From a virus (Duplodnaviria; Caudoviricetes), in IMG/VR virus record IMGVR_UViG_2645727757_000001, positions 1 through 64,000 of that record: DNA of 64,000 bases, one strand, 5' to 3'. Position numbers and translations under genes: made by a program. Shown here one piece after another: positions 6 through 56,702 of the stretch. Position 1 is the stretch's first letter. Each line of letters opens with the position of its first letter. Under the pieces are notes generated by a model, which was given only the letters and a program-made list of their open reading frames with translations, made no database searches and was not told the DNA's origin.

Positions 6-3000
6 TTGGCAATAATAGGTTCATTTAATGGCTTTTTTAAGCACAATAAAACAACAGAAGAAAAACTAAATAGCAGATTTGGAGAAGGAGCCTTTAGTGT
101 ATATTCTGAATCAGTTGATGATTTAATTAATAATTATAAAAATGGTATAAGTGTTGATTTCTTTGAAACATCGAGGCTTAAAAATGCCTCTTCTGTAAAA
201 CAAAGATTAGAAGAGGCTAGAACATTAAAAAATGCAATGCTAAATGGTGAAAAAATAATATCATATGACGTTGAAACATTAGGATCATTAAATTCTAAAA
301 ACTTCGCTATAACAGAATATTCTGCTATGATGAAGGATTATGGAACACAAAAAGTTGAACCTTTAGTACAACTTAATATGGGAATAAATAATAAAATATT
401 TGAGAATTTAAAGAATGATGTTAAAGCTGGATTTAACGGTAATATGTCAGAATCAGCTAAAGTAACTATAGAGAGATTACCTTATATATTTAATAGCGAT
501 GGTTCTGTAGCTAATGTAGAACCTACAAGAAGTAATGTAAATAGAGCATTGAACAGATTAACTAAAGAAGAAGTAAGGTATGGGGACGTTGATGTTGTGG
601 CTAGTAAAATATTAGAAGCTTCACAAAGTATAAACAAAGTAAAAGATAATATAACTATAGGATATAATATTAAAAATTTCGATAACCAAGCTAGAGCCGA
701 AATGTTAAGAACTCATGGATTACAAGATGGGTTATTATCTACAAATAGAGAAATAGATATCCAAGAAATTTTTATGGCAGCTTTTGATACAGAAATTCAT
801 GGTATGTATGAAGAAAAGGGAATGGGCAATGTTAGCGGTAAATTTAAAGTTGAAAATCTAGCTAAATTATTTGGTGTAGATGCAGGTACTTCTCACGTAG
901 CAGCTGATGATACTATGACTATATTTAATATATTAGAATCGAGTTTCAATGGTGGAGAAGAAACTGTATTAGATAGAGCTATAGGAAATATTGAAAGAAA
1001 AATAAAAAACGGTGGATATACAAATAAAACAGTAAATGACAATATTGTTTTTAGAGCTATTAATTCTAATAGTACTGTAGAAAACTTTAATTTTAATAAG
1101 AGTGCTAATCCTAACGGTTCAATATCAGCAGATGGATTCCAAAAGCACCTTGATTTTATGGTAGATAATTATTCTGGTAAACCAATGAAATATAGAGATA
1201 GAAGTTCTTCAAGGGGTTTATTCTACAGAGCTGGAGAAATGAGAGTAATACCAAAAGAGTATTTATCAGAAGAAACATTAAAAGCAATAGGAGAAAGTGC
1301 ACAAGAGGCTTATGTTTTACCTTTGACTACAATGGGAGATAGTAATTTTGGTCATACTTCATATATAATTAGAGGTAGCAAAGAGGAAATAGAAGATACT
1401 TTATCTACTAGCTTTAAATCATATAATTTAGTAAATAAAATAGATAGTAATTCTTCTCCTTATGATATAAGCGAAAAAGTTGCTAAAGCACAAGAAGACA
1501 TATATTTTAATGATCTAGCTAGAAGAAATTTTGACGCTATGTTTGAAGCTGGTGGAGAGAAAGACTTTAATTATACGTCCAGTATGTACGCAACATACGA
1601 AGAATTAAACTCAAATTACCAAAAATTAGGAGGTAAAGGTAAACTAAATAACACTCAAATAAAGGAACTTACAAATAATGGTAGGATAAAAGTTGGTGAA
1701 AATGAATTAACTCTAATGGATCACGCAACTAATCTTAGAAGAACTATACCCGATCCTGCTAATAAAGGTCAGTACATTAAAGGAGATTTAATTACTGAAT
1801 GGGTTAGAGATTTTAATTATATGTATGGCTATCTTGATGATACTAACGATATAATATCTCCAATGATTGAAGAAATACAACAAAATATTACTTTATCTAA
1901 TGGTAATGTTTTAAATGCAATTAAAGGAGCATCTAAAGAAAATAGAGCTTCAATTATAAATAGAATTAAGAAAGAATCATTAAGTAATTCATACAATGAA
2001 CTTGTGGGAGCTATTAATGAATCTTTAGGAAAAGAAGCTGGAGCTTCAATTTTTAATGAAGTTATTAATCCATTTGATATTAACTTTTATAATTATGCTG
2101 ATGTATTAAAAGATGGAAAATATACTTCTATGAATATAACTACATTAGATTCAACAATAGAAGGGCTAGGAAAATTAGTATATAGGAATAATAGAGCTGG
2201 TACTAGTGCAGCTAGTACAAAAAATTACGCTTTATCTAATCTTATATCTATAAGTAAAGATTTAAATTCTAGAGGAATTGTATCTGATAAAATGTTAGAA
2301 GAAATAAGCTCAACTGGTGATGTTAATACATCTGTAAAGGCTATAGCTAAAGATTTATTTGATTATTCAGTTGAAGCAAAAAATGGATTACCAGATGAAG
2401 CACTTATAAAAAGTTATATAGAAGCAATGCTTACAAATAACTATGAAGATGAAACATTAAAGAAATTAACTAATCTTAGAGGTGGAACTGCGTCCATAAG
2501 AGATTTAAGTGGAATAAAAATAAATGATATGTCTTTCAGAAATTATGTTCTTACAAATTCAGAAGAGCTTTCTGGAATTTTAGGTGTTGATAATATTATT
2601 ACTGATGTAGTTGAAAGAAACTCTGGTATGGCATCTAGTGTATTTAATCTTAATGTTGGTGAAAAAACTTTAAAATATATAAATTCTCAAAATAATGTTG
2701 GCCATAAAGTAAAAGTTTTACCAGAAGCTTTTACTTCATATTTAAGAAATACCGTTGGATATAATGACAATGAAATAGCAGCTATAACTGATATGCTATA
2801 TGGAATTAGTGACAATGGAAGTTATGAAAAGAAATTCGGGTATATACCTAGAGGTTATGGTGCGACATTTATTACAGGAACAAATAAAGGTGATCCAACA
2901 CATGGATTCTTGATTTACAATCCAAGTGATACTAATGAAGTACTAAATGCCTACAGAAGAGGCGAGATAAGTCCTAAAGCTGCGTTCCAACCAATCCCAA

Positions 3001-6000
3001 CAGTTAATAATGATTACGGAAGAAGATATATTAAGCAAGGTAATAGTAATAAAATGATTACAGAAGATATTACAGCTTATTATGGAGGTAAGTCAATAGA
3101 CACTAGAATACCAGTATTAAAAGAGGGAAATACAATAACTAATGCAATAGATTCTAGTAGAATTGTAGCTGATAGTTTTGATAATTTAATGAAAGCTGGA
3201 AAGGGAGAAGAAGCTTCAAGATTAGTTAATAATCAATACAATAAAGTTATTGGTAATGAAATAGGTACTAGTGCATATAGAAGAATAGGCAATAAGAAAC
3301 AATTCGTTGCTAATATGAATGACTTAATGGAATATAAGAAAGCTGGAGGATTAATGTCTTTACTTCCAGAGCTTTACGGTGAACCTGATATACAAAAAGA
3401 ATTAGATGATCTTTTTGGCCATGATGTTGTAAAAAGAGAACTGAATAAAATAAGTGATAGCATTTATAACTATGATATAAATTCACATCAAATGAGTGGA
3501 GATATGCAAGAATGGTATTTAAAGAACTTATTTGATGGAAAAAATCTAGCTGAAAGAATGAAAAAATTACCTAATATAAGTAAAAATAATTTAAAAATAA
3601 TAGAATCAGCTATAGAAGAAGTTAAGAATGGAAGTATGCTTGTAAAGGAATCAATGACAGGAAAATATGCAACAATATATTCAAAACAAAATCCAGTAAA
3701 CTTCGATCCTTTTTCAGAATACGATAATCCAGTTAGACCTCTTCATAACCAACGTCTAGGTATTAAAGCTATTAGTTATGAAGAATTAATAAATAATGCT
3801 AAAGAAAGAGGCGTAGATAATATACAAGAACTACTAGAAGGTAATAGTGTATATATAGGTTCTATGACTAGAGCTAGTGATGCTAATTTAAAATTTAATT
3901 TAGTATCTAGTAACGAAGGTAAACCATTATATGAAGGTCTATCAATAAAAGCTTCTCAAATGCCATCTGCTGCATATTATGAAAAGTTTAATCAAATAGA
4001 TCCAGAAGAAATAAGAAAAAGATTTACTATTAAAACTAATAAAGCTATAACTATGGAAGATGTTGATTATATATTAAGAGCATATGGTACAAATGGTGGA
4101 ACTTATGAACAACATAGTGTATTAAGACCAAGTATAGCTAAATATGCAGGACCTAAACCAGAAACAGTAAGTGTTAAATTAAATGGAGTAAATGCTGATG
4201 AATTTAAACTAGGTGATTCTATAGATAACAATAGTATCGTAAGTAGATTCAATATAGATAGCGATATAGTGAATTTAAAATACGATAATGTTCCTGGAAC
4301 AATTGTTGATATAGATTATGAATCAAATACATTACAAATTGAGCCTAAGAATAAATCATTTAATGAAATAAAAGTTAATCTAGGCGGTGAAAAAACTGTA
4401 TCAACTCCTATACTTGGAAAAAACAATATTCAGTATGAGTTTTCAGAATTTTTATATAATGAAATGTTTGGAGAAGATGTTTCTCTTGTAGGTCATATGG
4501 AATTTGGTAAGCATAAAAATGCAGGAGCAATTATACAAAATCAATTCGATACAGCTATTGAAATGTTAAATAAATACGGTAATGAGGAAGAAATGGTTTT
4601 ATTTGCTACAGCAATAAACAGAAGCGGACTTGGATGGAATTTGAGTTATGAAAAAGATCCAAGAACAGGATTATATCATGCAGTAAAACATACATCTGAT
4701 GTTGATGGTAACGCTTTTGAAATGCTTAATAATGCATTTGATGAATTCTATAGAGTTTCAAGAAATCCAGAGCTAGTAAATTCTATAAAAAATGAACTTA
4801 ATTATAATAGGGAAAATAATTTATATAGAACAACATTAAGATTCGCAGAACTTAATGAATCTCTTCAAGCTGCTGAAAATGAGCTTGGAAGAGGTATAAA
4901 AGATACTCCTAGAAAAAGACAAGTATTTGGAGCGGAAGCACTTGATGGATATAGAACAATAGATAAATATGGAGAAGTGCAAAGAATAGTACAACCAATA
5001 ATAGATATGAACCTTGATACTATAAAAGACGGAACAGCTTTTAAAAAGGCATATGTTGATATGGGGAATATATACAATACTTCAAAAGCTATCTCTGGAA
5101 ATACTGATGGAATAAAGATACTAGAGAAAGATTTATTAGGTTTAGACGTAAATAGTAAAAATCTAACTATAGATTTATTAAAAAATAATATTTATGGAAT
5201 TGATGCAGATAAATATAGCGTATTGAAATTAAACCTAAAAAATCAAAGAGTTGTAAACCCTGTTACAAAAGTAAAAGAAGATTTTGTTTATCTTCCAATT
5301 TTGCATACAAATATAATAAACAATGACCAAATTTATCCTTCAAAATCACAAGGAGTTTCTGCTGAACTTATTAGAATGTTGTCTATAAAAGAAAATTTAG
5401 AATCATTAGAAGGTACTAAATTTGCTAACTATGAAGATTTAGCCGAAATGATAAATAGAGAATACGCAAATAGTTTTAATCTGTTACCATATGAATATTC
5501 TAATAAGAACGGTATAGTGAATAAAGCTTTGGCATCTGGAAGAGTGGATATGTCTGGTATGTCATTAACCGCTGGTATTATTCCACCAGAATTTGTTGAT
5601 GCAAATAAAACAAAACTAAGAAATCCAATGGGTAATCAAGCTATAAGACTTGTAGATGGTAAACCTGTATATGATGATATTGTTTGGACTTCTAAAGAGT
5701 ACTTAGAATCAATGGGTTATAACAGCAAGACTATAGGAAAACAACTATATAATAATAACTTTATGGATAACATGGAGTTTAGAAGGATTATAGAAGAAAA
5801 TGGTTTACTAAAAGGATTAAATAAATCAGATGTTACTGATGATATATTTGAACAGATTGGTGATTTATACGCTAGTAAAATAGGTATAAATGCTATTGCT
5901 ACAAGAGAACCTACATTCCATACAGGAGCAACTAAGGCAACTAAAGTAATGTTGAATGATACTATGGAAGGTTATTCAGTAATGCTTACATCTTGGATGG

Positions 6001-8825
6001 CTGGACCACAAAATGCCGACATTGATGGTGATAATGAATTCATTCAATTACTTGGCCTTAAAAAGACTAATGAAGGGGTAGTGCTTAGAAGTGGTGATGA
6101 TGAAATTAACGTTGCAGTAGAAAGACTTCTAAAACTCCAAAATAGATTAAATGAAGAGTATGTTGGTTCTACTAGTAATCAAGTTGTATTAGAATACAAT
6201 AAAGATGGAGTTTTTGAAGGTAAGTATAGATATGTCAACGATAAGGAAGCTAAAAAATACACAATGTCTGGTAAAGTAATGACAGAAATTATTGAAGATG
6301 AGTATGGAATGGACGGAAATATAAATTTCTTCTCAAAAGAACATGGAGAAAAAATAAGACAGCTAGGAATAAAAGCAAGACAAAATAAAGCTGGTATAGG
6401 TTATATATCTAATGAGAACTTTAAAATAAGAGAAATGGCTTTCCATTCTTTAGATAAAGACTATCTAAATAAAGAGCTATATAATGATGTAATAAAATTT
6501 ACTCAACTAGCAGAACAAAAAATCATTGACGTTAAGCATAGTAATATAGAGAAACTTACAGTTGCTCCTAAATATCAAGCTGGTATAAAACTAATGGGTA
6601 ATGCAACTGGAAATGAAAATCTAAATAAAGGATTTGAAAGTGTTGTTGAAGCCATTAGGGATTCTGGAGTATACGGTGATGACATAATAGTTAATGCATC
6701 AGATATAATAAAAGGACAATTCCCAAATAATGAGGGGAATAGACACCTAAGAGCTGTATATGATTTATTCCAAAATGATGATTTAAGAGAAATATATAAA
6801 TCAAGAGCTAATAATCCTATACAATTAAATAGATTAGATGATAAGAATAGTGTTGAAAAAGCAGTTAAAGAAACTATGGATTTCCTAAAGACAGTTGAAA
6901 ATAGTGATACTGATGAACAAATACTAAGTAAAATTGAAAAAAATAATATATCCTTAATAAAGAAAGCAGCAAAAGGAAATAACGTTATAATGGATCATAT
7001 TGTAGTAGGAGAAGATTCAATTTTAAGAGAAAAGGGAGGTTCATCATCATTTAAATTAACTAGTATAGATAATTTAAATGGAATGGCTACACTACAAAAT
7101 TTAGATACAGAAGAATATTTTAATGTATTCTCTAACTCTGAAAAATCATTAGACCAAATTTTAGGTAGTAAATATGACGTTATGATTGGTAAAGAGTTAG
7201 ATGAAGTAATGGAAAATATAAAACCTAAAAGAACACAAAAAGATATTTATTTAGATAGAGTATTTAGTAATCCAGATGAAGTGCCAGAAATTTTAAAAGC
7301 AGCTCAATTAGATGATGAAGTATTAAATGCTGGAAGAAAAAGAAGAAACAAATTATTAAAAGAACAATTTGAAGATACTGATATAAATATAAAGAGAATG
7401 TCAGATATAATTTCAGAAAATGTTGATTCTAATGGAGAATTTTTAAATACATTAAGAAAAAATTACTCTAAAATAGATTTTGAACTTATAGAAGATGGAT
7501 ATAATAGATTAAATACTCTTTATAAGAACAATAAGCTAAAGAGAAGTGAATTTTCAGAATACCTTACTGAAATAAATAATAATATTATCAGAAAAGGTAG
7601 AGATGCGAAATTAAAGAGAGAACAAATGAATGAGTATATCACTAATAGAACAATGGATGTTGCTAAGAGATATAGCCAAGGAAGAGATTTTAACCAAATA
7701 AATTCAGAAATTTCACAACATAAGATTTATGATATAGATTCTATGAAATCATCATATGCAGAAGCATTAATGAAGAATAAAAATAGAATAACGGAAACTT
7801 ATGATGATGAAAAGATAGCAAAAACTCTTATAAATAAAAGTGAAAATACAGCACAAGAACTAATAAATGAGGCTATTGAATATAATGAACAATCTGGGTT
7901 AAATAAAACTCTACTGTATGCTGAAAACTTTGATTATAAAGGTGGAAGAGAAGAACTTCTTAATTGGAATAGCTCAACTGAAAGAAGTGTAAGAGGTTTA
8001 TTAGATAACCCTAATATGAAGTTAACTAATAAAGAATTTAATACATTATCAAATGCGAAGATTGGTTTTGGAGAATTTGCTGATGCAAGGCTAAGAGATT
8101 TAGATATTGATACTTTAAAAGGATTAATTGGCTCACAAGCTAGTACATCTAACTCTGAAATAAGAGGTATAATGGAAGAAAGCCAAAGAAACATAAATGC
8201 TTATGTAAGTTATGTAGTTAATAATAAAAATAATTTATCTAATGAATATAGAAATGCTTCTAAAAATATAACTAAAATGCAAAAGCCTTTAGATAATGAT
8301 TTTGGAGTAGAAAAATTAAATAAAAGATTACTAGAACTTGCGGAGGAAAAAAGATTCAATACTGAAAATGCAGCTAAAGAAACAGTAGAAGGAATATCTA
8401 AAAACATGGATGAAGCTAGTAAATCACTAAAAAAACTATTCAAGAATAAAAAAGTTTTAGTTGGTGTTGCAGGAGCTGGTGCTGCCGCTGTAGCTTTATC
8501 TGTTTTAGGAGGAAGAAACGAAGTTAATCCAGGAAAGATTGATAATGAAGCTAATGAACAAATAAACACTAAAGCAAAACCAGTTGTTTATGAAGCTCCA
8601 CCTTCTGCTCCTAATAATAATAGAGGATTATTAGAAGGTATAAAGATGAAGATTACTGGAAAATCAAATAATGAAATAGATAATAAACAACTTCAAAGTA
8701 AAATAGCTAGTACATTTAAAAATAGTGTTGGAAATGAAGTTACTATAAATACATCCGAAGAAGATAATAGAGAAGATATTAATGACAGTTGGTTAAAAGA
8801 CAAAATATCAAAATTAATTAATTAA
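6..8825 (+). CDS. Giant single-chain two-barrel (DPBB) RNA polymerase, probable virion RNAP, with N-terminal DEDDh exonuclease domain and C-terminal hydrophobic segment
   Basis: Exonuclease motifs: YDVET (D88,E90), GYNIKNFD (D226), SHVAADD (H297,D302). Beta-like motifs: PFSEYDNPVR (aa1235-1244), TYEQ, PGTIVDID, KVNLGGEK (K1456,K1463), KNAGAII. Beta'-like motifs: GRVDMSGMS (R1846), REPTFH (aa1967-1972), NADIDGD (aa2003-2009, nt 6012-6032). Hydrophobic VLVGVAGAGAAAVALSVLGG near the C-terminus. TTG start; the RBS would lie outside the window. Confidence 0.85.
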   Translation: MAIIGSFNGFFKHNKTTEEKLNSRFGEGAFSVYSESVDDLINNYKNGISVDFFETSRLKNASSVKQRLEEARTLKNAMLNGEKIISYDVETLGSLNSKNFAITEYSAMMKDYGTQKVEPLVQLNMGINNKIFENLKNDVKAGFNGNMSESAKVTIERLPYIFNSDGSVANVEPTRSNVNRALNRLTKEEVRYGDVDVVASKILEASQSINKVKDNITIGYNIKNFDNQARAEMLRTHGLQDGLLSTNREIDIQEIFMAAFDTEIHGMYEEKGMGNVSGKFKVENLAKLFGVDAGTSHVAADDTMTIFNILESSFNGGEETVLDRAIGNIERKIKNGGYTNKTVNDNIVFRAINSNSTVENFNFNKSANPNGSISADGFQKHLDFMVDNYSGKPMKYRDRSSSRGLFYRAGEMRVIPKEYLSEETLKAIGESAQEAYVLPLTTMGDSNFGHTSYIIRGSKEEIEDTLSTSFKSYNLVNKIDSNSSPYDISEKVAKAQEDIYFNDLARRNFDAMFEAGGEKDFNYTSSMYATYEELNSNYQKLGGKGKLNNTQIKELTNNGRIKVGENELTLMDHATNLRRTIPDPANKGQYIKGDLITEWVRDFNYMYGYLDDTNDIISPMIEEIQQNITLSNGNVLNAIKGASKENRASIINRIKKESLSNSYNELVGAINESLGKEAGASIFNEVINPFDINFYNYADVLKDGKYTSMNITTLDSTIEGLGKLVYRNNRAGTSAASTKNYALSNLISISKDLNSRGIVSDKMLEEISSTGDVNTSVKAIAKDLFDYSVEAKNGLPDEALIKSYIEAMLTNNYEDETLKKLTNLRGGTASIRDLSGIKINDMSFRNYVLTNSEELSGILGVDNIITDVVERNSGMASSVFNLNVGEKTLKYINSQNNVGHKVKVLPEAFTSYLRNTVGYNDNEIAAITDMLYGISDNGSYEKKFGYIPRGYGATFITGTNKGDPTHGFLIYNPSDTNEVLNAYRRGEISPKAAFQPIPTVNNDYGRRYIKQGNSNKMITEDITAYYGGKSIDTRIPVLKEGNTITNAIDSSRIVADSFDNLMKAGKGEEASRLVNNQYNKVIGNEIGTSAYRRIGNKKQFVANMNDLMEYKKAGGLMSLLPELYGEPDIQKELDDLFGHDVVKRELNKISDSIYNYDINSHQMSGDMQEWYLKNLFDGKNLAERMKKLPNISKNNLKIIESAIEEVKNGSMLVKESMTGKYATIYSKQNPVNFDPFSEYDNPVRPLHNQRLGIKAISYEELINNAKERGVDNIQELLEGNSVYIGSMTRASDANLKFNLVSSNEGKPLYEGLSIKASQMPSAAYYEKFNQIDPEEIRKRFTIKTNKAITMEDVDYILRAYGTNGGTYEQHSVLRPSIAKYAGPKPETVSVKLNGVNADEFKLGDSIDNNSIVSRFNIDSDIVNLKYDNVPGTIVDIDYESNTLQIEPKNKSFNEIKVNLGGEKTVSTPILGKNNIQYEFSEFLYNEMFGEDVSLVGHMEFGKHKNAGAIIQNQFDTAIEMLNKYGNEEEMVLFATAINRSGLGWNLSYEKDPRTGLYHAVKHTSDVDGNAFEMLNNAFDEFYRVSRNPELVNSIKNELNYNRENNLYRTTLRFAELNESLQAAENELGRGIKDTPRKRQVFGAEALDGYRTIDKYGEVQRIVQPIIDMNLDTIKDGTAFKKAYVDMGNIYNTSKAISGNTDGIKILEKDLLGLDVNSKNLTIDLLKNNIYGIDADKYSVLKLNLKNQRVVNPVTKVKEDFVYLPILHTNIINNDQIYPSKSQGVSAELIRMLSIKENLESLEGTKFANYEDLAEMINREYANSFNLLPYEYSNKNGIVNKALASGRVDMSGMSLTAGIIPPEFVDANKTKLRNPMGNQAIRLVDGKPVYDDIVWTSKEYLESMGYNSKTIGKQLYNNNFMDNMEFRRIIEENGLLKGLNKSDVTDDIFEQIGDLYASKIGINAIATREPTFHTGATKATKVMLNDTMEGYSVMLTSWMAGPQNADIDGDNEFIQLLGLKKTNEGVVLRSGDDEINVAVERLLKLQNRLNEEYVGSTSNQVVLEYNKDGVFEGKYRYVNDKEAKKYTMSGKVMTEIIEDEYGMDGNINFFSKEHGEKIRQLGIKARQNKAGIGYISNENFKIREMAFHSLDKDYLNKELYNDVIKFTQLAEQKIIDVKHSNIEKLTVAPKYQAGIKLMGNATGNENLNKGFESVVEAIRDSGVYGDDIIVNASDIIKGQFPNNEGNRHLRAVYDLFQNDDLREIYKSRANNPIQLNRLDDKNSVEKAVKETMDFLKTVENSDTDEQILSKIEKNNISLIKKAAKGNNVIMDHIVVGEDSILREKGGSSSFKLTSIDNLNGMATLQNLDTEEYFNVFSNSEKSLDQILGSKYDVMIGKELDEVMENIKPKRTQKDIYLDRVFSNPDEVPEILKAAQLDDEVLNAGRKRRNKLLKEQFEDTDINIKRMSDIISENVDSNGEFLNTLRKNYSKIDFELIEDGYNRLNTLYKNNKLKRSEFSEYLTEINNNIIRKGRDAKLKREQMNEYITNRTMDVAKRYSQGRDFNQINSEISQHKIYDIDSMKSSYAEALMKNKNRITETYDDEKIAKTLINKSENTAQELINEAIEYNEQSGLNKTLLYAENFDYKGGREELLNWNSSTERSVRGLLDNPNMKLTNKEFNTLSNAKIGFGEFADARLRDLDIDTLKGLIGSQASTSNSEIRGIMEESQRNINAYVSYVVNNKNNLSNEYRNASKNITKMQKPLDNDFGVEKLNKRLLELAEEKRFNTENAAKETVEGISKNMDEASKSLKKLFKNKKVLVGVAGAGAAAVALSVLGGRNEVNPGKIDNEANEQINTKAKPVVYEAPPSAPNNNRGLLEGIKMKITGKSNNEIDNKQLQSKIASTFKNSVGNEVTINTSEEDNREDINDSWLKDKISKLIN

Positions 8826-8840
8826 AGGAAGGATTGTATT

Positions 8841-11800
8841 TTGGGTTACGATAGAATATTAAACAATGTATTAAAGACTGATGAATCAGACAACCTTCAA
8901 ATTGAAGTAGCTTTCAATAAGTATAAAAGAGAAAAGCAACCAAGAAGTCCAATGGATGCTCCATCTAATTCTTTTAGACCAGATAGTAATGTTAATAGTG
9001 GACCAAACGGTAATTCTAGTGGTTCTACTTCAAAGCCAGGTAGTGGGGATAACCCACTAGTTGGCGTTGTTCCACCTAAAGAAAGTGCATCTGGTTCTAC
9101 TGGTGGAATGGGACAATATGAATACGGACTTGAACAAGCTAAGTTACTTAATAGAAAGGTTAATGAAGCTACTTATTATAATGCTCCATTAATAAATGCT
9201 GATCCTAAAATAGTAAAAGAAATAATATCTGCTGAACAAAAAATATCAGATAGTAGAAAAAATATTCCTCCAGAATATAATGACTATATCGAATATCCTA
9301 ACAGAGTAAATAATAACTATACAGCATTTAGGTTAGGTGATGTTCAATTTAATGTTCCTCCAGAATTTATATCAGTTACTGAAACAACTCCTACAGAATC
9401 AGTAAATTCCCTAAGACAAAGGGGTAGTTTAAAAATAAAAAGAGGTTATACAAGAAGAAGTATAACAGTTCAATTATTTGTAAATGGAGCAGAGCAAATA
9501 AACGGATATGAAGTAAATTCACCATTTAATAGATACTATGTAGATGGAATAAGACCTCTATTTGCACAGTTTATTACTACACCTTTTGTACCTGTATATA
9601 ACGAATACCTTAATAATGAATATAATATTTTTACTGTTGCTGTATCTGGTATTTTAATAACAACTTTAGATGGATTTCCTGGGTGCTATGAAATTCATTT
9701 AAGTTTAGAGCAAATAACATTAACACCTTATACAGAAGTTCCAGATTGCTTATATGAAGATATTATAAACTGGGATTTATACAGGTTTAATTATCAAAGA
9801 CTTCTTTCAGAATACACGCCTAAAGTAAAAACGTTTTTACCTAAGATGAAAAATCACAAAGACAGTAAATTTAAATTGAAAATATTAAATCAAGAAATAT
9901 TAAATGGTGCTAAAGACTTTGAAAATAGAGAAGTTTCAGAAACCATATATGATGATAAAAACTTTGATGTGATGCTAGACACAGAGGAACAAGGATTTGA
10001 AGTTACTGGAATAAGCATTACTGCATCAAATAATATTCCATTAATACAATTAAATTCTCAAAACATACCTACAGCTCAATACTTAGGTTCAAGTGATATA
10101 GGATTTAATTTAGTTATACAAACTACAGATAGGGATGTTATTCATTCATTAGAAACAGCTAATGGTTTATCACAATTTATGGCAAGACAAAATAAAGAAT
10201 TTGGTACATTTGGATTCTTAAAAGTTGAAAATGAATTAATTAACATGGTTGGTGTTGAATATATAGTAATTGATTCATTAGAAATATCAACTGTACCTAA
10301 TTTCCCTGGTCTATATAATATTACAGTAGCTTGTACTGAATATGATTATAGGCAAAAAGAAAGAGAGCATTTAGTTGGAATGACACCATTCCAAGATAGA
10401 AAAGGATATAAAGATGATGCTATAAGTCAAGATGGAGTCGGGTTATTAAATAAGATTCAACAAGAAAATACTATAGAAGCAAAAATGACTAGAGTTGAAT
10501 TATACCCAGATTTACATTTACCTTTATATGATGAAGTAAACGAAGCTATTAAAAAGATAAATAAATTTAGAGCTAATCATAATTTAGCACCTATGAATAT
10601 GGATTCATTAGATAAATCATTCTCCATAACTCCAGGTAAAGGACCTATGGGAGCATACGGATTATATGTTGATCCAGATTATTATGTAAATTATCCATTG
10701 GATTATAGAAATTTAAATGATTCAATTTTTGATGAAATAAAAGGACCTAAAGAGGCAAAGCCAGTTACAACAGTAGGTAAAGCAATTCAATACGGAGAAG
10801 ATTTACCTGATGGAAGTTATATAGATGAAAATGGAGTAGTACATTACGTTACTGCTGGAAGTCCCTCTTCTTCAAGCGGTGGAGGTAATTATGATTATGA
10901 TACTGAAACAGGAAATGCATTAGCTGATATTTTAATATCTAAATGTAAAGAAGGTTGCGGTTATGTATTTGGTTCTGATGGTCAAATAGCTACATCTGGA
11001 AAGTGGAAAGGTAAGCAAGTATTTGACTGTAGTGGATTTATAAGTTGGGGATTAAGAGAACTTGGTCTTATGACTGGAAGAACTAATGACGCAGGACTTA
11101 TGAGTTCAACCTACTCAACTAGAATAAGCAAAAGTGAATTAAAGCCAGGAGATTTTGTAAGATTTGTAGGCCATATAGGAGTATATATCGGGAACAATAA
11201 AATAGTTGAAGCTGCAAATTCAGAAGCTGGTGTTAGAATAGGAAACTTATATTCTAAGTTTAATGAATTTGCAAGACCTAAAAATGTAGGAAATTCAAAG
11301 AATAGATCAATAGATTCAGATTCAAGAAAGACTTCAAGAAGACCTACAGTTGGTACTGGAGGAAATGAGAGCGGTGCTTATGATACTCCATATGATGTTA
11401 GCACAACTAAAATAAATCAATTAAATAGGTTCTTATCAAATAAATTAGCAAATACAGCAATTTATTTTGTAAAGTATGGCCATAAATATAATGTAAACCC
11501 TGTATTTGTAATGTCAATTTCAAAGCTTGAAACAGGACACGGAAAAGTAATAACTAATAATAATCCTGGTGGATTGATGGGCAAGAATGGTCTTATATCT
11601 TATCCAACAATAGAAGCTGGAATTGATGCTATGACAAAAAATCTTAGAAAATTATATTTAGATATGGGACTTGATACAATTCCTAAAGTCGGAGCTAAGT
11701 ATTGTCCTGTTGGAGCTAGTAATGATCCTACTGGTCTTAATGTTAATTGGATACCTAGTGTAACTGCAATATACAAAGAGATTGCAGGAGGACCACCAAC

Positions 11801-14459
11801 AAGTTTAGAATACAAAGGTTTTGGTGACGTAAATCCTAATTACTCTGGTGGTTCTGGAAGTGCTGGAGGCTCTTCTCAAACCGTAGAAACTATAAAAAAT
11901 CAATGGACTGGAAAAACAATAGGAGATACTGTTTTCAAATTAGATTCAAAGAACTTTGGAAGACCAATAGTACATGAAAGTCCAGCTATGTATGTTGTTA
12001 AGTATGACAATATAGGAAAAAAAGTAGAAGATAAACTTAATTTCATATCAAAATATATGAACGTTGATGGAGCTTCTAGCTTTAAGATTGCAAGTAAAAT
12101 ATATAAAGCATTAGGACATGAATTAGGAAATGGTGCTATAAAATCAATTTGGGAAGATATTGCATCAGATATTGGTGATGTAATTGGTTTTGGTGCTGAA
12201 ACTGTTAATTCATTTGTAACTAAAGAATACGACAAAATGATAAAGAAATTTTATAGCAATAGCTTAGAAATATATAAAACTATGTATACTGATATGATGA
12301 TGTATTCAAGAACAGGAACAATGTGTAGAGCTTTTCCGACTTATAGTTTTTTAATTGCAGATGATTCCGGTGATTGGCTAGATGCAAGAAGGTTATGGAG
12401 TAATTTCTATATATATAAATCAATTATATCTATAGATATTCACCAAGAAAAATCTCAACCAGTTCATACAGCAAAAATAACAGCTACTAATATTCATCAT
12501 AATCTTAATTCAAAGAAGACTAATCAAGAGCTTAGAAATAATATAAAGAATGATCCTGAATATGGTTGGTTAGTTAAGGAATTTTATAAGCTATCTGGTG
12601 TATTAGTTGGAACTCCTAAGCTTACAGAGAATATGGTTGAAGTTAAAAATCAACTATACGAGTTAATTAACTTAAAAGCTGGAGCTAGAATACACATAAG
12701 ACTTGGGTATGGTTCAAATCCTCTTATGTTGCCTATATGCTTTAATGGAGTAATATCTGAAATTAATAATGGTGATGTAGTTGAGATTCTAGCGGAAAGC
12801 TTTGGAGTTGAGCTAATAAATGGCATATTAAGTTCAGATGAAGAGGATGTAAATACAATATTCAATATTGGTTCAGAACCTACAAATGTAATATATAGTG
12901 CATTAGCTGAAAGAGATGGAACATTTGCTAATATGCTTAGTAAAAAGTGGGGAGAAAGTAGCAGGTATGGTATAGAAAACTTCGGGTTAGTAAGAGATTA
13001 TGCAAGAATAAAATTATTCGAGGATAGTGCAAAAAATTATGACCAAATGAAAAATGTTTATTTTGCTAGGTATGATTGTATTCCTTTCTGTAAGGGAGCA
13101 TTATTAAATATGGATGGAGAAGATAATGTTAATTTCTATCTTTATAATAAAACTCCTTGGGATGCTTTTCAAGTTATAACACAATCATTACCAGAGTTTG
13201 TATGTCAACCTATGTATCACCAGTTCGACTGTAGATTGTTCTTTGGATTACCATATGCTTTATCTTATTATAGGTATGATATTAATAAAGAAACAGTATA
13301 TGATTCAGCTAAATCCTTCGCACAATTCCATTATATAGATTCACTAAGTAACATTATTGATAATAGAGTATTGTCAACAACACAAGACCTTACAACTAAC
13401 TGTATAGCTATGTATACGTTAGGTGAAGGAGTTAAGAGTTCTCCTACAGTATATTCAGATAGAACAATATATCCAAGTTATCAAAAAACTAGAACTATAG
13501 ATACAACATTAGTTCAAGATTACTTTGGATGGGATTGGCTATATGAAAAAACGTTTGCTCCGATAGCAAAAAGTGCCGCTATAAATATGGCAACTTCAAC
13601 ATTAATTGATTCTTGGAACAAAAACTATACTGGAGAAGTTATTATAATAGGAAATAGTTCTATAAAACCTTGTGATTATTTATATATAAATGATATGTAT
13701 TCAAAGATGGAAGGTTTAACTACAGTAAGAGAAGTTGTTCATAGTATAAACATTAAAGGATTCACTACTTCTGTTTATCCAGATATGATTGCAATAAATA
13801 CAATGAAGTACAGCGGACAAGGGAATATAGTTAAATCTCTTACTTCATTTGGTGCTTCGTATGGAGCAGTAAAAACCGCAAGACAAGCTATAGTTGATTC
13901 TGTAGAACCATACTCAACTTCAATATCTGTATTTAGAGGTCTAGGAGCATTAAGATATGATTCTCCTGTGTTGTATACAGCTATGGTTGCTGGTATGGAT
14001 ATTAAGCTTGGAAAATATATATTAAATTCAATGAAAAGTGCTGAAATAGTAAAAGATTTTACAAAGTATAGTAAAGCTGTAGCTGGATTTGCTAAGAAAG
14101 GTATAAGTATTATAAATGGATTAGATGCTGTAAATAAAGCTAAAAACCTTAAATATGTTAAGCCAGTAGTTGCAGGACTTAAAGGTGCTGGATTAAAACT
14201 TGCAGGTTGGGGAAGTTTAATCGCTCCAGGCATAGGAACTATAGTTGGATGGGCAGTAGGTTCTATATTTATAGATGTTTTACTAGGAGCAATCATTGAT
14301 GAATTCTCCTACAATAATACGGTTAAAGTATTCCCTATGTACTATAAGGATGGACCTTTTATATCTGGTTGTAGTGGTCAAGCTAACCTAATTGCGGGAG
14401 TAGCAGAAACAAGTGATGTGGATGAAAATGGCAAAAAAATGCCAGAGGATGAAGATTAA
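8841..14459 (+). CDS. Baseplate hub / tail-associated peptidoglycan hydrolase (NlpC/P60 + glucosaminidase/lysozyme-like domains)
   Basis: NlpC/P60 motifs GYVFG...FDCSGFI...PGDFV...GHIGVYIG (~10940-11280). Lysozyme-fold motifs YNVNPVFVMSISKLETG, NNPGGL, KYCP (~11430-11790). Hub-like IRLGYG..F.GVISEI segment. Hydrophobic C-terminal helices. Lies upstream of the spike, gp25-like and J genes. Confidence 0.8.
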   Translation: MGYDRILNNVLKTDESDNLQIEVAFNKYKREKQPRSPMDAPSNSFRPDSNVNSGPNGNSSGSTSKPGSGDNPLVGVVPPKESASGSTGGMGQYEYGLEQAKLLNRKVNEATYYNAPLINADPKIVKEIISAEQKISDSRKNIPPEYNDYIEYPNRVNNNYTAFRLGDVQFNVPPEFISVTETTPTESVNSLRQRGSLKIKRGYTRRSITVQLFVNGAEQINGYEVNSPFNRYYVDGIRPLFAQFITTPFVPVYNEYLNNEYNIFTVAVSGILITTLDGFPGCYEIHLSLEQITLTPYTEVPDCLYEDIINWDLYRFNYQRLLSEYTPKVKTFLPKMKNHKDSKFKLKILNQEILNGAKDFENREVSETIYDDKNFDVMLDTEEQGFEVTGISITASNNIPLIQLNSQNIPTAQYLGSSDIGFNLVIQTTDRDVIHSLETANGLSQFMARQNKEFGTFGFLKVENELINMVGVEYIVIDSLEISTVPNFPGLYNITVACTEYDYRQKEREHLVGMTPFQDRKGYKDDAISQDGVGLLNKIQQENTIEAKMTRVELYPDLHLPLYDEVNEAIKKINKFRANHNLAPMNMDSLDKSFSITPGKGPMGAYGLYVDPDYYVNYPLDYRNLNDSIFDEIKGPKEAKPVTTVGKAIQYGEDLPDGSYIDENGVVHYVTAGSPSSSSGGGNYDYDTETGNALADILISKCKEGCGYVFGSDGQIATSGKWKGKQVFDCSGFISWGLRELGLMTGRTNDAGLMSSTYSTRISKSELKPGDFVRFVGHIGVYIGNNKIVEAANSEAGVRIGNLYSKFNEFARPKNVGNSKNRSIDSDSRKTSRRPTVGTGGNESGAYDTPYDVSTTKINQLNRFLSNKLANTAIYFVKYGHKYNVNPVFVMSISKLETGHGKVITNNNPGGLMGKNGLISYPTIEAGIDAMTKNLRKLYLDMGLDTIPKVGAKYCPVGASNDPTGLNVNWIPSVTAIYKEIAGGPPTSLEYKGFGDVNPNYSGGSGSAGGSSQTVETIKNQWTGKTIGDTVFKLDSKNFGRPIVHESPAMYVVKYDNIGKKVEDKLNFISKYMNVDGASSFKIASKIYKALGHELGNGAIKSIWEDIASDIGDVIGFGAETVNSFVTKEYDKMIKKFYSNSLEIYKTMYTDMMMYSRTGTMCRAFPTYSFLIADDSGDWLDARRLWSNFYIYKSIISIDIHQEKSQPVHTAKITATNIHHNLNSKKTNQELRNNIKNDPEYGWLVKEFYKLSGVLVGTPKLTENMVEVKNQLYELINLKAGARIHIRLGYGSNPLMLPICFNGVISEINNGDVVEILAESFGVELINGILSSDEEDVNTIFNIGSEPTNVIYSALAERDGTFANMLSKKWGESSRYGIENFGLVRDYARIKLFEDSAKNYDQMKNVYFARYDCIPFCKGALLNMDGEDNVNFYLYNKTPWDAFQVITQSLPEFVCQPMYHQFDCRLFFGLPYALSYYRYDINKETVYDSAKSFAQFHYIDSLSNIIDNRVLSTTQDLTTNCIAMYTLGEGVKSSPTVYSDRTIYPSYQKTRTIDTTLVQDYFGWDWLYEKTFAPIAKSAAINMATSTLIDSWNKNYTGEVIIIGNSSIKPCDYLYINDMYSKMEGLTTVREVVHSINIKGFTTSVYPDMIAINTMKYSGQGNIVKSLTSFGASYGAVKTARQAIVDSVEPYSTSISVFRGLGALRYDSPVLYTAMVAGMDIKLGKYILNSMKSAEIVKDFTKYSKAVAGFAKKGISIINGLDAVNKAKNLKYVKPVVAGLKGAGLKLAGWGSLIAPGIGTIVGWAVGSIFIDVLLGAIIDEFSYNNTVKVFPMYYKDGPFISGCSGQANLIAGVAETSDVDENGKKMPEDED

Positions 14460-22332: not shown

Positions 22333-22347
22333 TTGGAGGTATTGTAT

Positions 22348-25300
22348 ATGACTATTGCTACTGGTCAATTCACGATAATAGACATGAACGATTTTGAATC
22401 TGGTGTAACTCCTCCTATTGAACCTAATGATAATTCAGTATGGCTTGATACATCAGTTAATCCGCCAGTATTTAAAATATGGAATGGTTCAGAGTGGGTT
22501 ATAGAAAATGATTGGAATGAAAAAGTAAATGGACTAGAAGATAGTATCAATGAAACTAAATCAAGTCTGGAAGGAACTCAAACTGATGTTAGATTATTAA
22601 AAAAATCTATTGATTTAAAAGCAGATACAACTTATGTAGATAGAGTTAAAACTGAATTAACTTTAGGCGGAAAAAATAAAATGCCATTTACATTGTTTGA
22701 TATGGAGAATTTTACATCATATTGGACTACTTCGCATAATGATATAGCTAGTATAAGTTTAGTTAATTATAATTTCGGAGTAGAAGGAAATGATGATTAC
22801 TTTATTGCAGGTAAAAAGGTTTTTAATTTCTCCGTAAATTCAATAAAGGCTACAGAACAACAGATTAATTATTCAACTTGTAATGTTATAGATGATAAGA
22901 AATTTATTAAATTAAAGCCAAATAAGGATTATACATTTAGTTCATGGATGTTAAAAAATAGTTTCTGCGAAAAATTTAAATTTGTAATATTCAATAAAGC
23001 TACAAATAAAATACACGCTACATCAAGTTTATTTTTAGCAGAAAGTGATAAGTTTAAAAGATATGGATTAACATTTACAACAGATTCTACAGAAGATTAT
23101 TGTGTGATAATTTACAATTATCCTAAATCTGGAGCATCTGGGAATTCAAATGTATATCTCTATAACATGATAGTTGAAGAAGGTGAAGCTAGTGATGTAT
23201 GGAGTCCATGCATTGATGACGTTGGATCATCTTCAATTGCTTATATCGAAGAAGCATTAAAACAATTAAAATCTAATTTAAAAGTAGAAGATGATAAGAT
23301 TACAGCAAGTGTTTCTAAGGTTCAATCAGAAACAGAAACACTTGATGGAGAAGTAAAGAAAAATAAAAAATGGATTGAAAATGCACAATTAGCTATAGAT
23401 AGTGGAAGTATAATTGGTAGTGTATCAAACTATTTACCTGGTGCTGATAATCTTATGCCATATACTTATTTAAATTTAAAAGATGTTGAAAAAAGCTGGT
23501 CTATAACTCCAAAAGGAACTATAACTAAAAGATTATATGATTTTGGTACAGTAAGCTCACAAGATAATTTCCTATATGGAAAAAATGTATTAATGATTTC
23601 TTGTACTCCACTTGATGCTTCATCAATAGAAGATTCAACATTGGTTTTAACTGTATCTCCAGAAAAAAGAGATATTGTTTTAGAAACAAATACTAAATAT
23701 ACAATAAGCTATTATGTTTATATTACAGATAGAATAAAGTCTGTTAAATGTCAAATATGGAATAAAGCAAAAAATAATTCATTAAATTCTACACTTGAAA
23801 GTGATTCAAATGTAACTGAATATACAGAGCATTTTGTAAAGGTAGAAGTATCATTCACAACAACTGAAACTGATACAGTATATTATCCTAGATTCATAAT
23901 AGAAATGAATAAAGATTTATTAAGAGATGCCAATATATATTTAGCTGATATGATGATTCAAAAAGGTAGTGTAAATATAACTTGGACACCTAATGCATAT
24001 GATAATGAAAAGTATATTGATGATACTATGACAGAAAAAATGGTAGAAGTTAATGAACAATTCTTAGAATATGGGAAAGAATTGAAAAATTTAGATACCT
24101 ATATGAAAGGTGCATTTAAGGATGGAATAATAGATAGCACAGAAGCAGAAAATATTAAAGAAAGCCTAAGATATATTGACATTGAAAAAAGAGCTATTGA
24201 CGCTCAATATAATGAAATAATGTCTAATGCATCTTTATTAAGTGATGAAAATACAAATGTATTACCAAGCGAAATTATTATAAAAGATGAAGTATCTACT
24301 TATGGAGCTGGACCAACTATTAGTGATGTAACGGTAATTGAAGCATTTAGAAACGGAAGATTCAAGTTAAGATACAAAGTAGGAAATGAATTACCTAATG
24401 AAAAAACAACACATTTCATAAGTAAAAATGGAGCGGATTATGAAAGTGTAGATGCTATAAAATATGGAGATTATTATGAGGCTATAAGTACAGGATTACC
24501 ACCTGGAGATAATAGAGTTTCAGTAAAGGTAATAAATTCAGCAGGTCAAAATGTTTATTCAAATGTTACAGTTACTATAAAAGAAAATTCAAAAGAACAT
24601 CTTACTTTCTCAAAAAAAGAATACAATAACAAATATGATGAATTAGTTACTGTAATTAATAGAATACTTGAAGCTGGAAAAGTAACAGAACAAGATAAAA
24701 ATGATATAGACACAGCATTTACTGCATATGGAGACAAGCTTTCTCAATTCCATGCAGCTTTTAATTCAGCAATAGATGCAATTGCAGAATCTAAAGTTAG
24801 TTCATTATCTCAACAATTAGATAATAAGATGGCTCAATTCAAAGTTACTGTTGATGGAATAAGTAGTACTGTAACAAAAACTGAAACAATTACAGGAGAA
24901 ATACTTGAAGATCTATCAAATGTTAATAGTAACATAGATGATTTAAAAACATCTGTAGGCGTAGCTAAAGAAAATGCAAAGAAAGCACAAGATGCAGCTG
25001 ATTCAGCAAAAAGTGCGGCTGATACAGCAAACAGACTTGTATCTGATATATCAAATGACAATAGATTAACTCCCGGTGAAAAGCAATCAGTAAAGCTTGA
25101 ATGGGATGTAATTGTCGGAGAAAAAGATGGAATCATAGAAAGTGCTAATAAATATAGTGTATCAACTACTGATTACTTATCTAAATACGATGCTCTTAAT
25201 ACTTATATAACACCATTACTTTCAAGTCTTACGAACACATCTGATGTAAATGGTGGAGTATTTAGAAGTAAATTTAAGGATTATTATAATTCTAAACAAG

Positions 25301-28300
25301 CAATATTAAATAATATAAGTAGTGAAGCTAAGTCTTTAGTTGAAGTAGCTGAAAATCTTGCCACACAAGCACAATCAGCAGCGGATGCAGCAAAACAAGC
25401 AGCTCAAACAGCACAATCCACAGCGGACGCTGCAAAATCATCAGCACAAACTGCAAATAACAAACTAGGAGAAATTGCTAGTGATAGCAAACTAACTCCT
25501 AGCGAGAAACAAAATACTAAATTAGAGTGGGACAAAATAGTAGGAGAAAAAGACAAAATAATATCAGAAGCAACTAAGTTTGGAGTAAGTACTACAACTT
25601 ATGTTGGTAACTATAATACTTTGGATTCTTATATAACACCTCTCCTATCAAGTTTAACTACTACTAGTGATATAGTTGGAACTACATTTAGAAGTAACTT
25701 CTCAAATTATTATAGTGCTAGACAGGATGTATTGAATGGAATAACTACTAAGGCTAAAGAATTAGCAGGTAACGCACAAAGCACAGCAAATAATGCACAA
25801 ACCGCAGCAACCAACGCTCAAAAAGCAGCAGATGCAGCTAAATCATCAGCTCAAACAGCACAATCCACAGCGGATGCTGCAAAATCATCAGCAACAACTG
25901 CAAATAACTTATTAAAAGATATTGCAGATGATAATAAAATAACACCTACAGAAAAACAAAGTACAAAGCTTGAATGGGATAAGATAGTAGGAGAAAAAAC
26001 TAAGATAGTAACAGAAGCAGGTAAATTTAGTGTTTCATTGACTACTTATAATTCAGCATATGATGCTTTAAATACTTATATAACGCCTATTCTATCTAGT
26101 TTAACTACTACTAGTTCAATAACAGGTACAGAGTTTAGAACTAAATTTTCTACTTATTATAATGCTAGACAGGATGTATTAAATGGAATAAGTTCTAAGG
26201 CTAAAGAGTTAGCAGATACCGCACAAAGCACAGCAAATACTGCAAAATCAGCAGCAGATGCAGCAAAACAAGCAGCTCAAACAGCTCAATCAACAGCGGA
26301 TGCTGCAAAATCATCAGCAACAACTGCAAATAATACATTAAAGGATATTGCTGATGATAATAAAATAACACCTACTGAAAAGCAAAGTACAAAGCTTGAA
26401 TGGGATAAGATAGTAGGGGAAAAGCCTAAGATTGTATCGGAAGCTGGTAAGTTTAGTGTTTCATTGACTACTTATAATTCAGCGTATAGTACTTTAGAAA
26501 ATTATATAACACCTATTCTTTCTAGTTTAACTACTACTACTAGCATAACTGGTACTACATTTAGGTCTAATTTTGCTAATTATTATAACGCAAGACAAGA
26601 TGTATTAAACGGTATAACCACTAAAGCTAAAGATTTGGCTGGTACTGCACAAAGTACTGCGAATAATGCACAAACTGCCGCAACTAATGCACAAAAAGCA
26701 GCAGATGCAGCTAATGCACTTGCTACTACTGCAAAAAGCACAGCGGATACTGCGAAAACTAATGCACAAACTGCAAATAACAAATTAGGTGAAATTGCAA
26801 GTGACAGTAAACTAACTCCTAGTGAGAAACAAAATACAAAATTAGAGTGGGACAAAATAGTAGGAGAAAAAGACAAGATAATATCAGAAGCAAATAAATT
26901 TGGAGTAAGCACAACAACTTATACTAATAATTACAATACTTTAAATTCTTATATAACACCTCTTTTATCAAGCTTGACTTCTACTAGTGATATTGTAGGA
27001 ACTACATTCAGAAGTAATTTTGCTAATTATTATAATGCTAGGCAAGATGTATTAAATAGTATAAGTTCAAAAGCTAAGACTTTAGCAGATAATGCACAAA
27101 CTGCGGCAGATAATGCGAATAAGCAAGTAGGCGCATTGGGAACTAGAGTATCTACGGTTGAACAAAAAGTTGAAGCAGATAATATAACAAATGTGGTTAG
27201 ACAACATACTTCATATAAGAATGATTTAAATGCTAAAGCTAATAAAACAGATGTATATACTAAAACTGAAATAGAAGGAAAAAAATATCAAACCGAATCA
27301 CAAGTACAACAAACTGTGAATGGACTTCAAGTTAAAGTAACTGATGAAGGTGGGTATAACTTAGTTAAAAATTCATGTGGTGGTGGAGTCACAAATTCTT
27401 GGATAGTACCAAGTGGAGTAGCGGCATATAGAAGTGTTGATGTGCAAACCTTATTACCAACAGGAGCATCAACTGCATTATGTTTTGATAATAATAGTGG
27501 CGCTACAGCTTATGTATGTTCAGAAAGATTTGTATTAAAACCTAATACAAAATATATATTTAGCGGATGGGTTCGTCATTATAATATGGGTGCACCTGTA
27601 TTTATGGTTGCGGGAAGTGATACAGTATACGAAAATAATGAAAGTGATAGTTACACATGGTATAAAAGAGCACCAGTAGATGGTGAACCAGACGTGTATA
27701 AGAAATTCTTCTTGACATTTCAGACTACAGCAAATACGAAAAGTGGATATGTAAGAATACAATTAGGCACTCAAGTTGCTTCAAATGCTTTAGCTATGTG
27801 TCAATTTACTAAAATATTAGTTACAGAAGGAGAACTTGATTTTGAATGGTGCCCACATCATGGAGAAGTTTATGAGGGCATAGTTGAAATAGGAAAAGAA
27901 GGGGTTAAAGTAACAAGAGATGGATTTAGATCATATACATTATTAGACGATAAATCGCTTTCAGTTATTGAAAAGGGTGCAACTATGGCATCATTTGGAG
28001 AAAACTCTTCAATTCCAGAACTAGTATCAGGTAGTATATACGCAGAAGAGATACAATCACAAAGTTTAATAAACACACAAACAGCAATAACACTTTATGT
28101 AAATATGACAAGTGGTTCCGATGAAAATGATGGTTTATCATCAAGCACTGCATTAAAAACAATACAAGAAGCATTAGATAGACTTAATAAATGTTTAATA
28201 GAAGATAGTGTAATTATTAATGTAACGGGTACTGGAAATCAATCTATAAAAGCTTGGGGATTTATCGGATCTGGAGAATTAAATATAATATTAGACCAGA

Positions 28301-56142: not shown

Positions 56143-56170
56143 GTATTATTTAGAAAGGAGAAAGTAGATT

Positions 56171-56674: not shown

Positions 56675-56678
56675 AAGT

Positions 56679-56702
56679 AGGTAGGTTCATATGAACCTAC
56701 CT
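56679..56702. terminator. Bidirectional terminator at the strand-convergence point
   Basis: Perfect palindrome aggtaggttcatatgaacctacct flanked by A and T tracts, between convergent genes. Confidence 0.75.

Follow-up and report, generated by a model that had tools for sequence, protein, structure and literature searches.

What would an exonuclease of the DnaQ type be doing on the same polypeptide as an RNA polymerase (RNAP), in a gene that lies within the tail gene block of a phage? The question arises from the open reading frame (ORF) at positions 6..8825 of IMG/VR virus record IMGVR_UViG_2645727757_000001. The window, meaning the whole 64,000-nucleotide stretch analysed here, covers the initial 64 kb of one virus contig of 185,364 bp with 24-33% G+C. 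A sequence-only reading of this DNA had described an intact DEDDh 3'-5' exonuclease fused to the N-terminus of an RNAP and had proposed transcript proofreading or trimming, resection of genome ends or counter-defence as its role. Our comparisons indicate that the source is an uncultured 185-kb relative of the jumbo myovirus Bacillus phage 0305phi8-36, and that the ORF product is, as judged from gene order, a protein of the tape-measure slot that is presumably present in the virion. Taken as a whole, the best explanation, which we hold to be on balance probable, is a tape-measure-slot protein that combines exonuclease and polymerase, is packed in the tail and trims the entering DNA end.

The N-terminal domain is, by its residues, a predicted catalytically complete exonuclease of the DnaQ/RNase T type. 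D88-x-E90, D226 and H297-x4-D302 lie where the sequence-only reading had placed them, encoded by GAC at 267-269 (D88), GAA at 273-275 (E90), GAT at 681-683 (D226), CAC at 894-896 (H297) and GAT at 909-911 (D302). The motifs alone are weak evidence, because the loose ordered pattern D.E / N...FD / H....D was recovered in 44 of 3,000 shuffles of the protein. Conservation and profile comparisons add to them. An alignment of six sequences, taking in the slot proteins of phages KLEB27-3 and WH1 and the corresponding protein of Moorella phage MTATph1, spans relatives 13-59% identical to the window protein; its only invariant columns are G81, D88, E90, E104, G219, N221, D226, H297 and D302, which include all five catalytic residues. 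The six-sequence profile aligned with E. coli epsilon (E 0.043, 213 columns) and RNase T (E 0.054, 207 columns) with the catalytic residues in register, and all 32 of its weak matches among PDB sequences were DEDD exonuclease domains (best E 0.0099). An NCBIfam 3'-5' exonuclease model also matched residues 277-315 (E 0.0016). The MTATph1 homologue passes the Pfam RNase_T family (PF00929; 28.2 bits against a cut-off of 24), and its domain aligns with the window family by hhalign at E 0.0023.

Structural prediction points in the same direction. The AlphaFold2 (AF2) model places Exo I on a strand (residues 83-90) and a second strand (216-221) ahead of a helix (227-236) that begins at Exo II. This strand and helix order is that of a DEDD exonuclease with an RNase H-like alpha/beta fold, the fold on which the earlier claim of a nuclease depended. 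The Foldseek matches listed for the PDB were all RNase T, oligoribonuclease, REXO2 or DnaQ domains (best E 2.9e-4), with 22 matches at E<=0.001; matches in BFVD comprised viral Orn, DnaQ and DEDDh proteins together with two long proteins. In the ESM Atlas, residues 71-345 adjoin viral PF00929 clusters (score 0.94, 170/256 features). Ahead of the domain, the leader was modelled with helices at 15-25, 29-45 and 61-79 at low pLDDT, and MTATph1 CDS0027 can be aligned to the segment upstream of Exo I. A catalytically dead DEDD fold that holds a DNA or RNA end, or serves as an assembly module, would account for the same fold matches, since inactive DEDD folds exist and polymerase alpha, Maelstrom and Exuperantia are among those matches; we regard it as highly improbable, as the five catalytic residues are invariant at 13-17% identity, which is not expected without selection for catalysis. 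Within the coding sequence of the domain, a 77-base patch of equal length at window 561-639 is strongly diverged in relatives that are otherwise ~90% identical, and in the same relatives a single inserted base and a single deleted base, separated by five bases at 704-709, compensate each other. Both sites fall in or just after the helical insertion that separates Exo I from Exo II (residues ~186-235).

Much further along the chain, residues ~1845-2009 carry what is, by motif and profile comparison, the catalytic module of a beta-prime-type RNAP. The motifs TREPTFH and NADIDGD are kept in all four close family members, and WH1 gp095 and KLEB27-3 gp034 have NRYPT...KADHDGD and NRYPT...KADYDGD, respectively, at the matching place. 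Across five aligned sequences, R1967, P1969, A2004, D2005, D2007, G2008 and D2009 are invariant, as are S1850 and G1851 in the switch-2-like segment. The R of the R-x-P motif precedes the first D by 38 residues (35 in E. coli), and the paired barrel motif was found in none of 3,000 shuffles. A five-sequence profile of residues 1780-2160 aligned with E. coli beta-prime 291-619 over 298 collinear columns (hhalign E 4.7e-5, probability 68%), a match inside which GRVDMSGMS is placed on KRVDYSGRS; as a separate match this pairing reached only E 0.2. All 32 matches in the profile search of PDB sequences were RNAP largest subunits at the barrel site, led by phiKZ gp55 (E 0.014). PF00623 was the top Pfam match in three of the five family members scanned, always below its cut-off of 25.3 (relatives 17.3-19.3 bits), and the ESM Atlas gave leads only, at 0.81-0.82, to PF00623 and LEF-9 clusters. 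For the candidate beta-like motif around K1456 and K1463, the lysine pattern was found in 336 of 3,000 shuffles and, within the family, only in the window protein (P0001) and its closest relative (P0002).

The ORF starts almost at the contig edge. Its start codon is TTG at 6, directly preceded by TAG at 3-5, and its Shine-Dalgarno sequence, AAGGGAG, is found at the far end of the contig. The break falls within the 16-base gap between a 2,320-residue gp145-like ORF at the contig end (L003 13027..19989) and ORF 6..8825. Contigs of ~90%-identical relatives from two other studies have the same bases upstream of window position 2 and run unbroken through 3000; the contig ends are therefore adjacent in the genome, and no break separates the exonuclease domain from the remainder of the gene. 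Three other assemblies, moreover, encode full-length proteins with the same N-terminus, so that the fusion is not an assembly artefact, the outcome that would have undone the earlier claim. Read-through of the TAG at 3-5 was considered and rejected: this codon terminates the upstream gp145-like ORF, and the Shine-Dalgarno sequence precedes the TTG. The virus record, which is classed as linear and 86% complete, is circularly closed or permuted, since other contigs join both ends.

Relatives of this protein are few. Word-indexed and exhaustive HMMER searches of 1.84 billion representatives recovered three true relatives only, P0002-P0004, of 2,939, 2,937 and 2,970 residues and with 89, 58-59 and 49-50% identity over the first 360 residues; a fourth match, P0005, was rejected as a spurious repeat protein. 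Of 50,697 phage records compared by tblastn, those of WH1, Edson and KLEB27-3 alone encode a window-type protein. Both modules lie on one chain in all seven proteins examined (P0001-P0004, WH1 gp095, KLEB27-3 gp034 and, by tblastn, Edson). Searches with the separate parts were largely empty. The N-terminus gave nothing significant in Pfam, PHROGs, PDB sequences (phmmer) or the 50,697 phage records (tblastn), its sole Pfam match being DNA_pol_B_exo1, which covers the Exo II region and scored 16.9 bits (cut-off 23), and its profile gave no match at E<=10 among 8,000 candidate proteins of 198-665 residues. The polymerase region had no match by tblastn against phages, by phmmer against the PDB, with another profile (A2) against the PDB or in PHROGs, and the polymerase segment had none in four related phage records. 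No related loci were found in viral, genome or metagenome contigs.

Gene order defines where this protein belongs. At the contig end, two small chaperone-like ORFs (191 and 239 residues) and the 2,320-residue giant mirror gp143, gp144 and gp145 of 0305phi8-36; they are followed by ORF 6..8825 and then by the baseplate hub, reproducing the gp143-147 order of that phage, and ORF 6..8825 therefore occupies the gp146 slot. This is the position of a tape measure, downstream of the tail chaperones and upstream of the hub, with a gp145-like giant intervening as it does in 0305phi8-36. Direct resemblance to gp146, itself a 'hypothetical' tape measure, is limited to the last ~120 residues (BLASTP E 0.005), and hmmsearch found the same C-terminal tail in KLEB27-3 gp034 and MTATph1 CDS0031. 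In P0003, residues 2490-2548, within the poorly conserved C-terminal third, have a weak match to Pfam TMP_3 (E 0.014, below the cut-off).

Within the gp146 slot, the DEDDh exonuclease is more widespread than the polymerase motif. P0006, a protein of 1,513 residues without DxDxD, has LDLETT, GQNIVGFD and HEAMVD within residues 756-945. It is the intact form of a protein that is split in MTATph1, with 52% identity to CDS0027 and 67% to CDS0031; the MTATph1 tape-measure-slot gene (L005 9724..17080) is interrupted by a transposase gene. In 0305phi8-36, gp146 (L001 7687..15300) has an Exo I-like YLDIETTGL at residue 1223, no DxDxD and later motifs that are uncertain. Two Exo II-like stretches are present in gp146, which suggests an exonuclease region that is partly duplicated or decayed, and the protein has no Pfam match.

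This distribution bears on what the exonuclease acts upon. One possibility is that it proofreads or trims transcripts, removing misincorporated or backtracked RNA 3' ends in place of Gre-type factors. The presence of both modules on one polypeptide in 7/7 proteins is what this idea would lead one to expect, and the RNA 3' trimmers RNase T and oligoribonuclease are among the best fold matches. Against this, the active sites are ~1,500 residues apart, with contact between the modules only putative, and the same-slot relatives (P0006/MTATph1 CDS0027 and gp146) keep the exonuclease without DxDxD. For this last reason we rank transcript proofreading below a role linked to entry and consider it unlikely. 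The more specific proposition that this is the first cell-type (two-barrel) RNAP with a DEDDh proofreading or backtrack-resolving exonuclease in cis is rather less likely again. In line with the earlier reading, literature searches found no published two-barrel RNAP with a DEDDh fusion. The description given there of the present protein as such a fusion holds in part: a beta-prime-type module does lie on the same chain, at a distance of ~1,500 residues from the exonuclease, whereas a second barrel was not detected, and it is for this reason that we can only infer two-barrel status.

Persistence of the exonuclease without the polymerase motif would also be consistent with an injected counter-defence or host-takeover enzyme that works independently of the polymerase, degrading host nucleic acids or nucleotide-based defence molecules. 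By its slot and by precedent the protein is likely to be ejected, and among the fold matches are oligoribonuclease, diDNase and the CBASS-associated Cap18 exonuclease, implying that such a fold can handle short nucleotides. Few copies would be present per tail, however, and no specific similarity to any known anti-defence protein was found, so that we judge this role to be quite improbable.

Action on the entering DNA end is the interpretation we favour instead. As in P23-45 gp96, the protein would be packed in the tail and would leave it ahead of the DNA. In tape measures of other phages, the C-terminus lies on the hub side and the N-terminus on the genome side. With its C-terminus at the hub, the protein considered here would hold its N-terminal exonuclease nearest the genome end. 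Once in the cell, the exonuclease is predicted to shorten a 3' end, with the incoming phage DNA as its most likely target, and the exposed single strand could then become the template for the first transcripts of the polymerase module or, alternatively, pair with the opposite end of the genome. Such resection would be a sensible partner activity because phi14:2 gp66, the virion polymerase of a crAss-like phage, transcribes single-stranded and not double-stranded DNA in vitro (bioRxiv 10.1101/2020.03.07.982082).

Several observations weigh against this interpretation. The first concerns polarity: at a genome end, 3'-5' digestion spares the strand with the terminal 5' end. Transcription of that strand would proceed towards the end, and the exonuclease could therefore prepare a template only if the first genes face outward. 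Others concern the exonuclease assignment. The AF2 model of the N-terminus is of low confidence (mean pLDDT 49.4, pTM 0.46, from a four-row alignment), and low-confidence AF2 models can yield meaningless fold matches; nowhere in the genome does PF00929 find a match at E<=10, the scores with NCBIfam exonuclease models are 12-18 bits where 247-389 would be required, and the window protein exceeds no curated threshold. For the polymerase, PF00623 gave no match for P0001 or P0003, a beta-like second barrel was not detected by hhalign to E. coli beta (E 0.4-0.6), and no beta or Rpb2 chain is among the 32 PDB profile matches. Finally, the window protein has no significant sequence similarity to P23-45 gp96 (E 0.15).

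The polymerase results would also fit a protein that is solely a tape measure or structural component, in which the NADIDGD region is a relic or a coincidence and transcription is left to a YonO-like polymerase and the host enzyme. No curated RNAP model scored above threshold and no second barrel was detected; gp146 was annotated as a tape measure by length (PMC2147016), and P0003 has its weak TMP_3 match. The genome, moreover, encodes its own YonO-like polymerase, a separate single-chain YonO/RdRP-like protein of 1,409 residues at 118781-123010 on the - strand, outside the window (PF05183, E 3.5e-24). It is likely the counterpart of 0305phi8-36 orf99, and the source phage thus probably has two polymerases; an hhalign comparison of the polymerase core with the YonO-like enzyme was not significant. 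What speaks against a purely structural protein is that R-x-P and AD-x-DGD are invariant across groups that are ~25% identical, with the motif pair in 0/3,000 shuffles, and that the beta-prime match is collinear, includes switch 2 and is accompanied by 32/32 PDB matches to RNAP largest subunits. We therefore find this alternative very doubtful, and retain the tail-packed protein acting on the entering DNA end as the preferred explanation. The features on which the argument draws are collected in the table.

Features of the giant ORF and its neighbour, in window coordinates
Feature	Coordinates	Strand	Basis
Whole ORF, 2,939 amino acids (P0001), giant protein in the tape-measure slot	6..8825	+	Synteny with 0305phi8-36 gp143-gp147; full-length relatives P0002-P0004
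N-terminal leader, residues 1-77, predicted helical; conserved GSFNGFF at 5-11	6..236	+	AF2; alignment
Predicted DEDDh (DnaQ/RNase T-like) 3'-5' exonuclease domain, residues ~78-335	237..1010	+	Motifs, fold and profile searches
Exo I, D88-V-E90 within IISYDVETLG	267..275	+	Invariant; aligns to D12/E14 of E. coli epsilon
Exo II, G219-Y-N221-IKNF-D226	660..683	+	Aligns to FD of epsilon (D103), RNase T and RB69 polymerase
Exo III, H297-VAAD-D302	894..911	+	Aligns to H162/D167 of epsilon
Weak candidate beta-like basic motif EIKVNLGGEKTV (K1456, K1463)	4365..4400	+	K1456 invariant in five-sequence alignment
Switch-2-like segment GRVDMSGMS, residues 1845-1853	5538..5564	+	hhalign to KRVDYSGRS of E. 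coli beta-prime
Beta-prime-type double-psi barrel signature, TREPTFH (1966-1972) to NADIDGD (2003-2009)	5901..6032	+	Motifs, hhalign, PDB profile
Single transmembrane-like hydrophobic segment, residues 2816-2836	8451..8513	+	Kyte-Doolittle window scan; aligns with similar gp146 segment
C-terminal ~60 residues common to tape-measure-slot proteins of related phages	8643..8822	+	BLASTP, hmmsearch
Baseplate hub with cell-wall hydrolase domains, gp147 homologue	8841..14459	+	phrog_20474 E 5.9e-267; NlpC/P60; tblastn to ORF147

The wider genome agrees with the assignment of the phage. Baseplate and virion genes downstream of the giant ORF match Bacillus phage 0305phi8-36, WH1, Edson, KLEB27-3 and MTATph1; a crAss-like phage, suggested by the giant ORF and low G+C content, and a phiKZ-like phage were both rejected on the strength of these matches to 0305phi8-36. 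Two further giant ORFs lie in the window, at 22333..29283 (2,316 residues) and 31119..37871 (2,250 residues), the former with repeated PHROG matches of tail-fibre and glycerophosphodiester-phosphodiesterase-like type. At 55303..57644, a sigma-factor-like ORF (phrog_351) precedes one that resembles tyrosine integrases and lies on the - strand, and this pair sits where gene orientation and G+C skew flip, at ~56 kb. Beyond the window, at 87487-89317 on the - strand, two open frames separated by a TAA match DNA polymerase III alpha (PF07733), and the genome as a whole yielded no proofreading subunit of the PF00929 family. A role for the DEDDh domain as proofreader of this polymerase was considered and dropped as unlikely for a protein of the tail gene block.

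Part of this picture belongs to kinds already known, namely tape-measure-fused and giant virion polymerases. What appears to be new is a conserved DEDDh domain in tape-measure-slot giants and a polymerase module in 0305phi8-36-like myoviruses, neither of which was found described in our literature searches. Virion polymerases fused to a tape measure have been known from a single group of Thermus siphoviruses; if our interpretation is correct, the idea extends to jumbo myoviruses of the 0305phi8-36 type, among them cultured Bacillus phages in which the protein is annotated merely as structural, and suggests that the 'hypothetical tape measure' of the 0305phi8-36 lineage is a multi-enzyme cargo. 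A conserved nuclease added to the injected machine would also draw attention to the fate of the first 3' end at genome entry in long-tailed phages. Should proofreading in cis prove true, the protein would be a tail-delivered transcription counterpart of the replicases that unite polymerase and exonuclease.

Comparison with characterized and annotated systems places these features in order. With E. coli epsilon (DnaQ), RNase T, oligoribonuclease, ExoI and TREX1, the N-terminal domain shares the five catalytic residues and the strand-helix order. Those stand-alone enzymes are small and either free-standing or polymerase-bound, whereas the window domain has a 77-residue leader and ~2,600 residues after it, an interval from Exo I to Exo II that is longer by ~50 helical residues, and a sequence below PF00929 detection. 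In the same gene slot are vB_BceM_WH1 gp095 (LC597490.1), Edson (PV796108.1) and vB_BauM_KLEB27-3 gp034 (OM634661.1), which have the same layout of N-terminal DEDDh motifs, NRYPT followed by AD[YH]DGD at ~1930-2000, and the shared C-terminus. Their identity to the window protein is 16-17% in the exonuclease part and 24.7% in the polymerase part (E 0.007), and the insertions that separate their Exo I and Exo II motifs are larger. These records annotate the protein as structural or hypothetical only, and no paper on WH1 or KLEB27-3 was found in the literature.

Like the window protein, 0305phi8-36 gp146 lies between gp145 and the hub gp147 and has a similar C-terminus. Its record describes a 'hypothetical tape measure protein' that is a virion protein by mass spectrometry; the assignment as tape measure was made by length (Hardies et al. 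2007, PMC2147016). It differs in having no DxDxD, in the position of its exonuclease-like region, which is mid-protein, and in that the polymerase of that phage is the separate orf99. Cellulophaga phage phi14:2 gp66 likewise has its polymerase inside a giant protein, a virion-packed single-chain two-barrel enzyme; phi14:2 is, however, a podovirus-like crassvirus, and the available portion of the preprint has no mention of an exonuclease (bioRxiv 10.1101/2020.03.07.982082). The polymerase region of the window protein had no sequence match to any PDB chain, 6VR4 included, in the phmmer and A2 profile searches.

The closest known kind, by analogy, is the tape-measure-fused virion polymerase of the P23-45 gp96 type. 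The P23-45 report describes gp96 as a tape measure whose N-terminal part is the virion polymerase; the non-virion enzyme of that phage is gp64 (Chaban et al., Nat Commun 2024, PMC10770324). Among the entries seen of its 'Two RNAPs' table there is no 0305phi8-36-like phage, and its main text has no mention of an exonuclease, whereas the window protein has an N-terminal DEDDh domain. The two systems differ further in that P23-45 is a siphovirus and the window phage a contractile-tailed jumbo phage, and in that the gp96 polymerase lies near the N-terminus (residues 327-1124), whereas the window motif is at ~2005 (PMC10770324). They are alike in combining a giant protein, the tape-measure slot, a DxDGD motif and membrane segments, and in the second polymerase encoded elsewhere in the genome, which is a non-virion two-barrel enzyme in P23-45 and the YonO-like polymerase here (PMC10770324).

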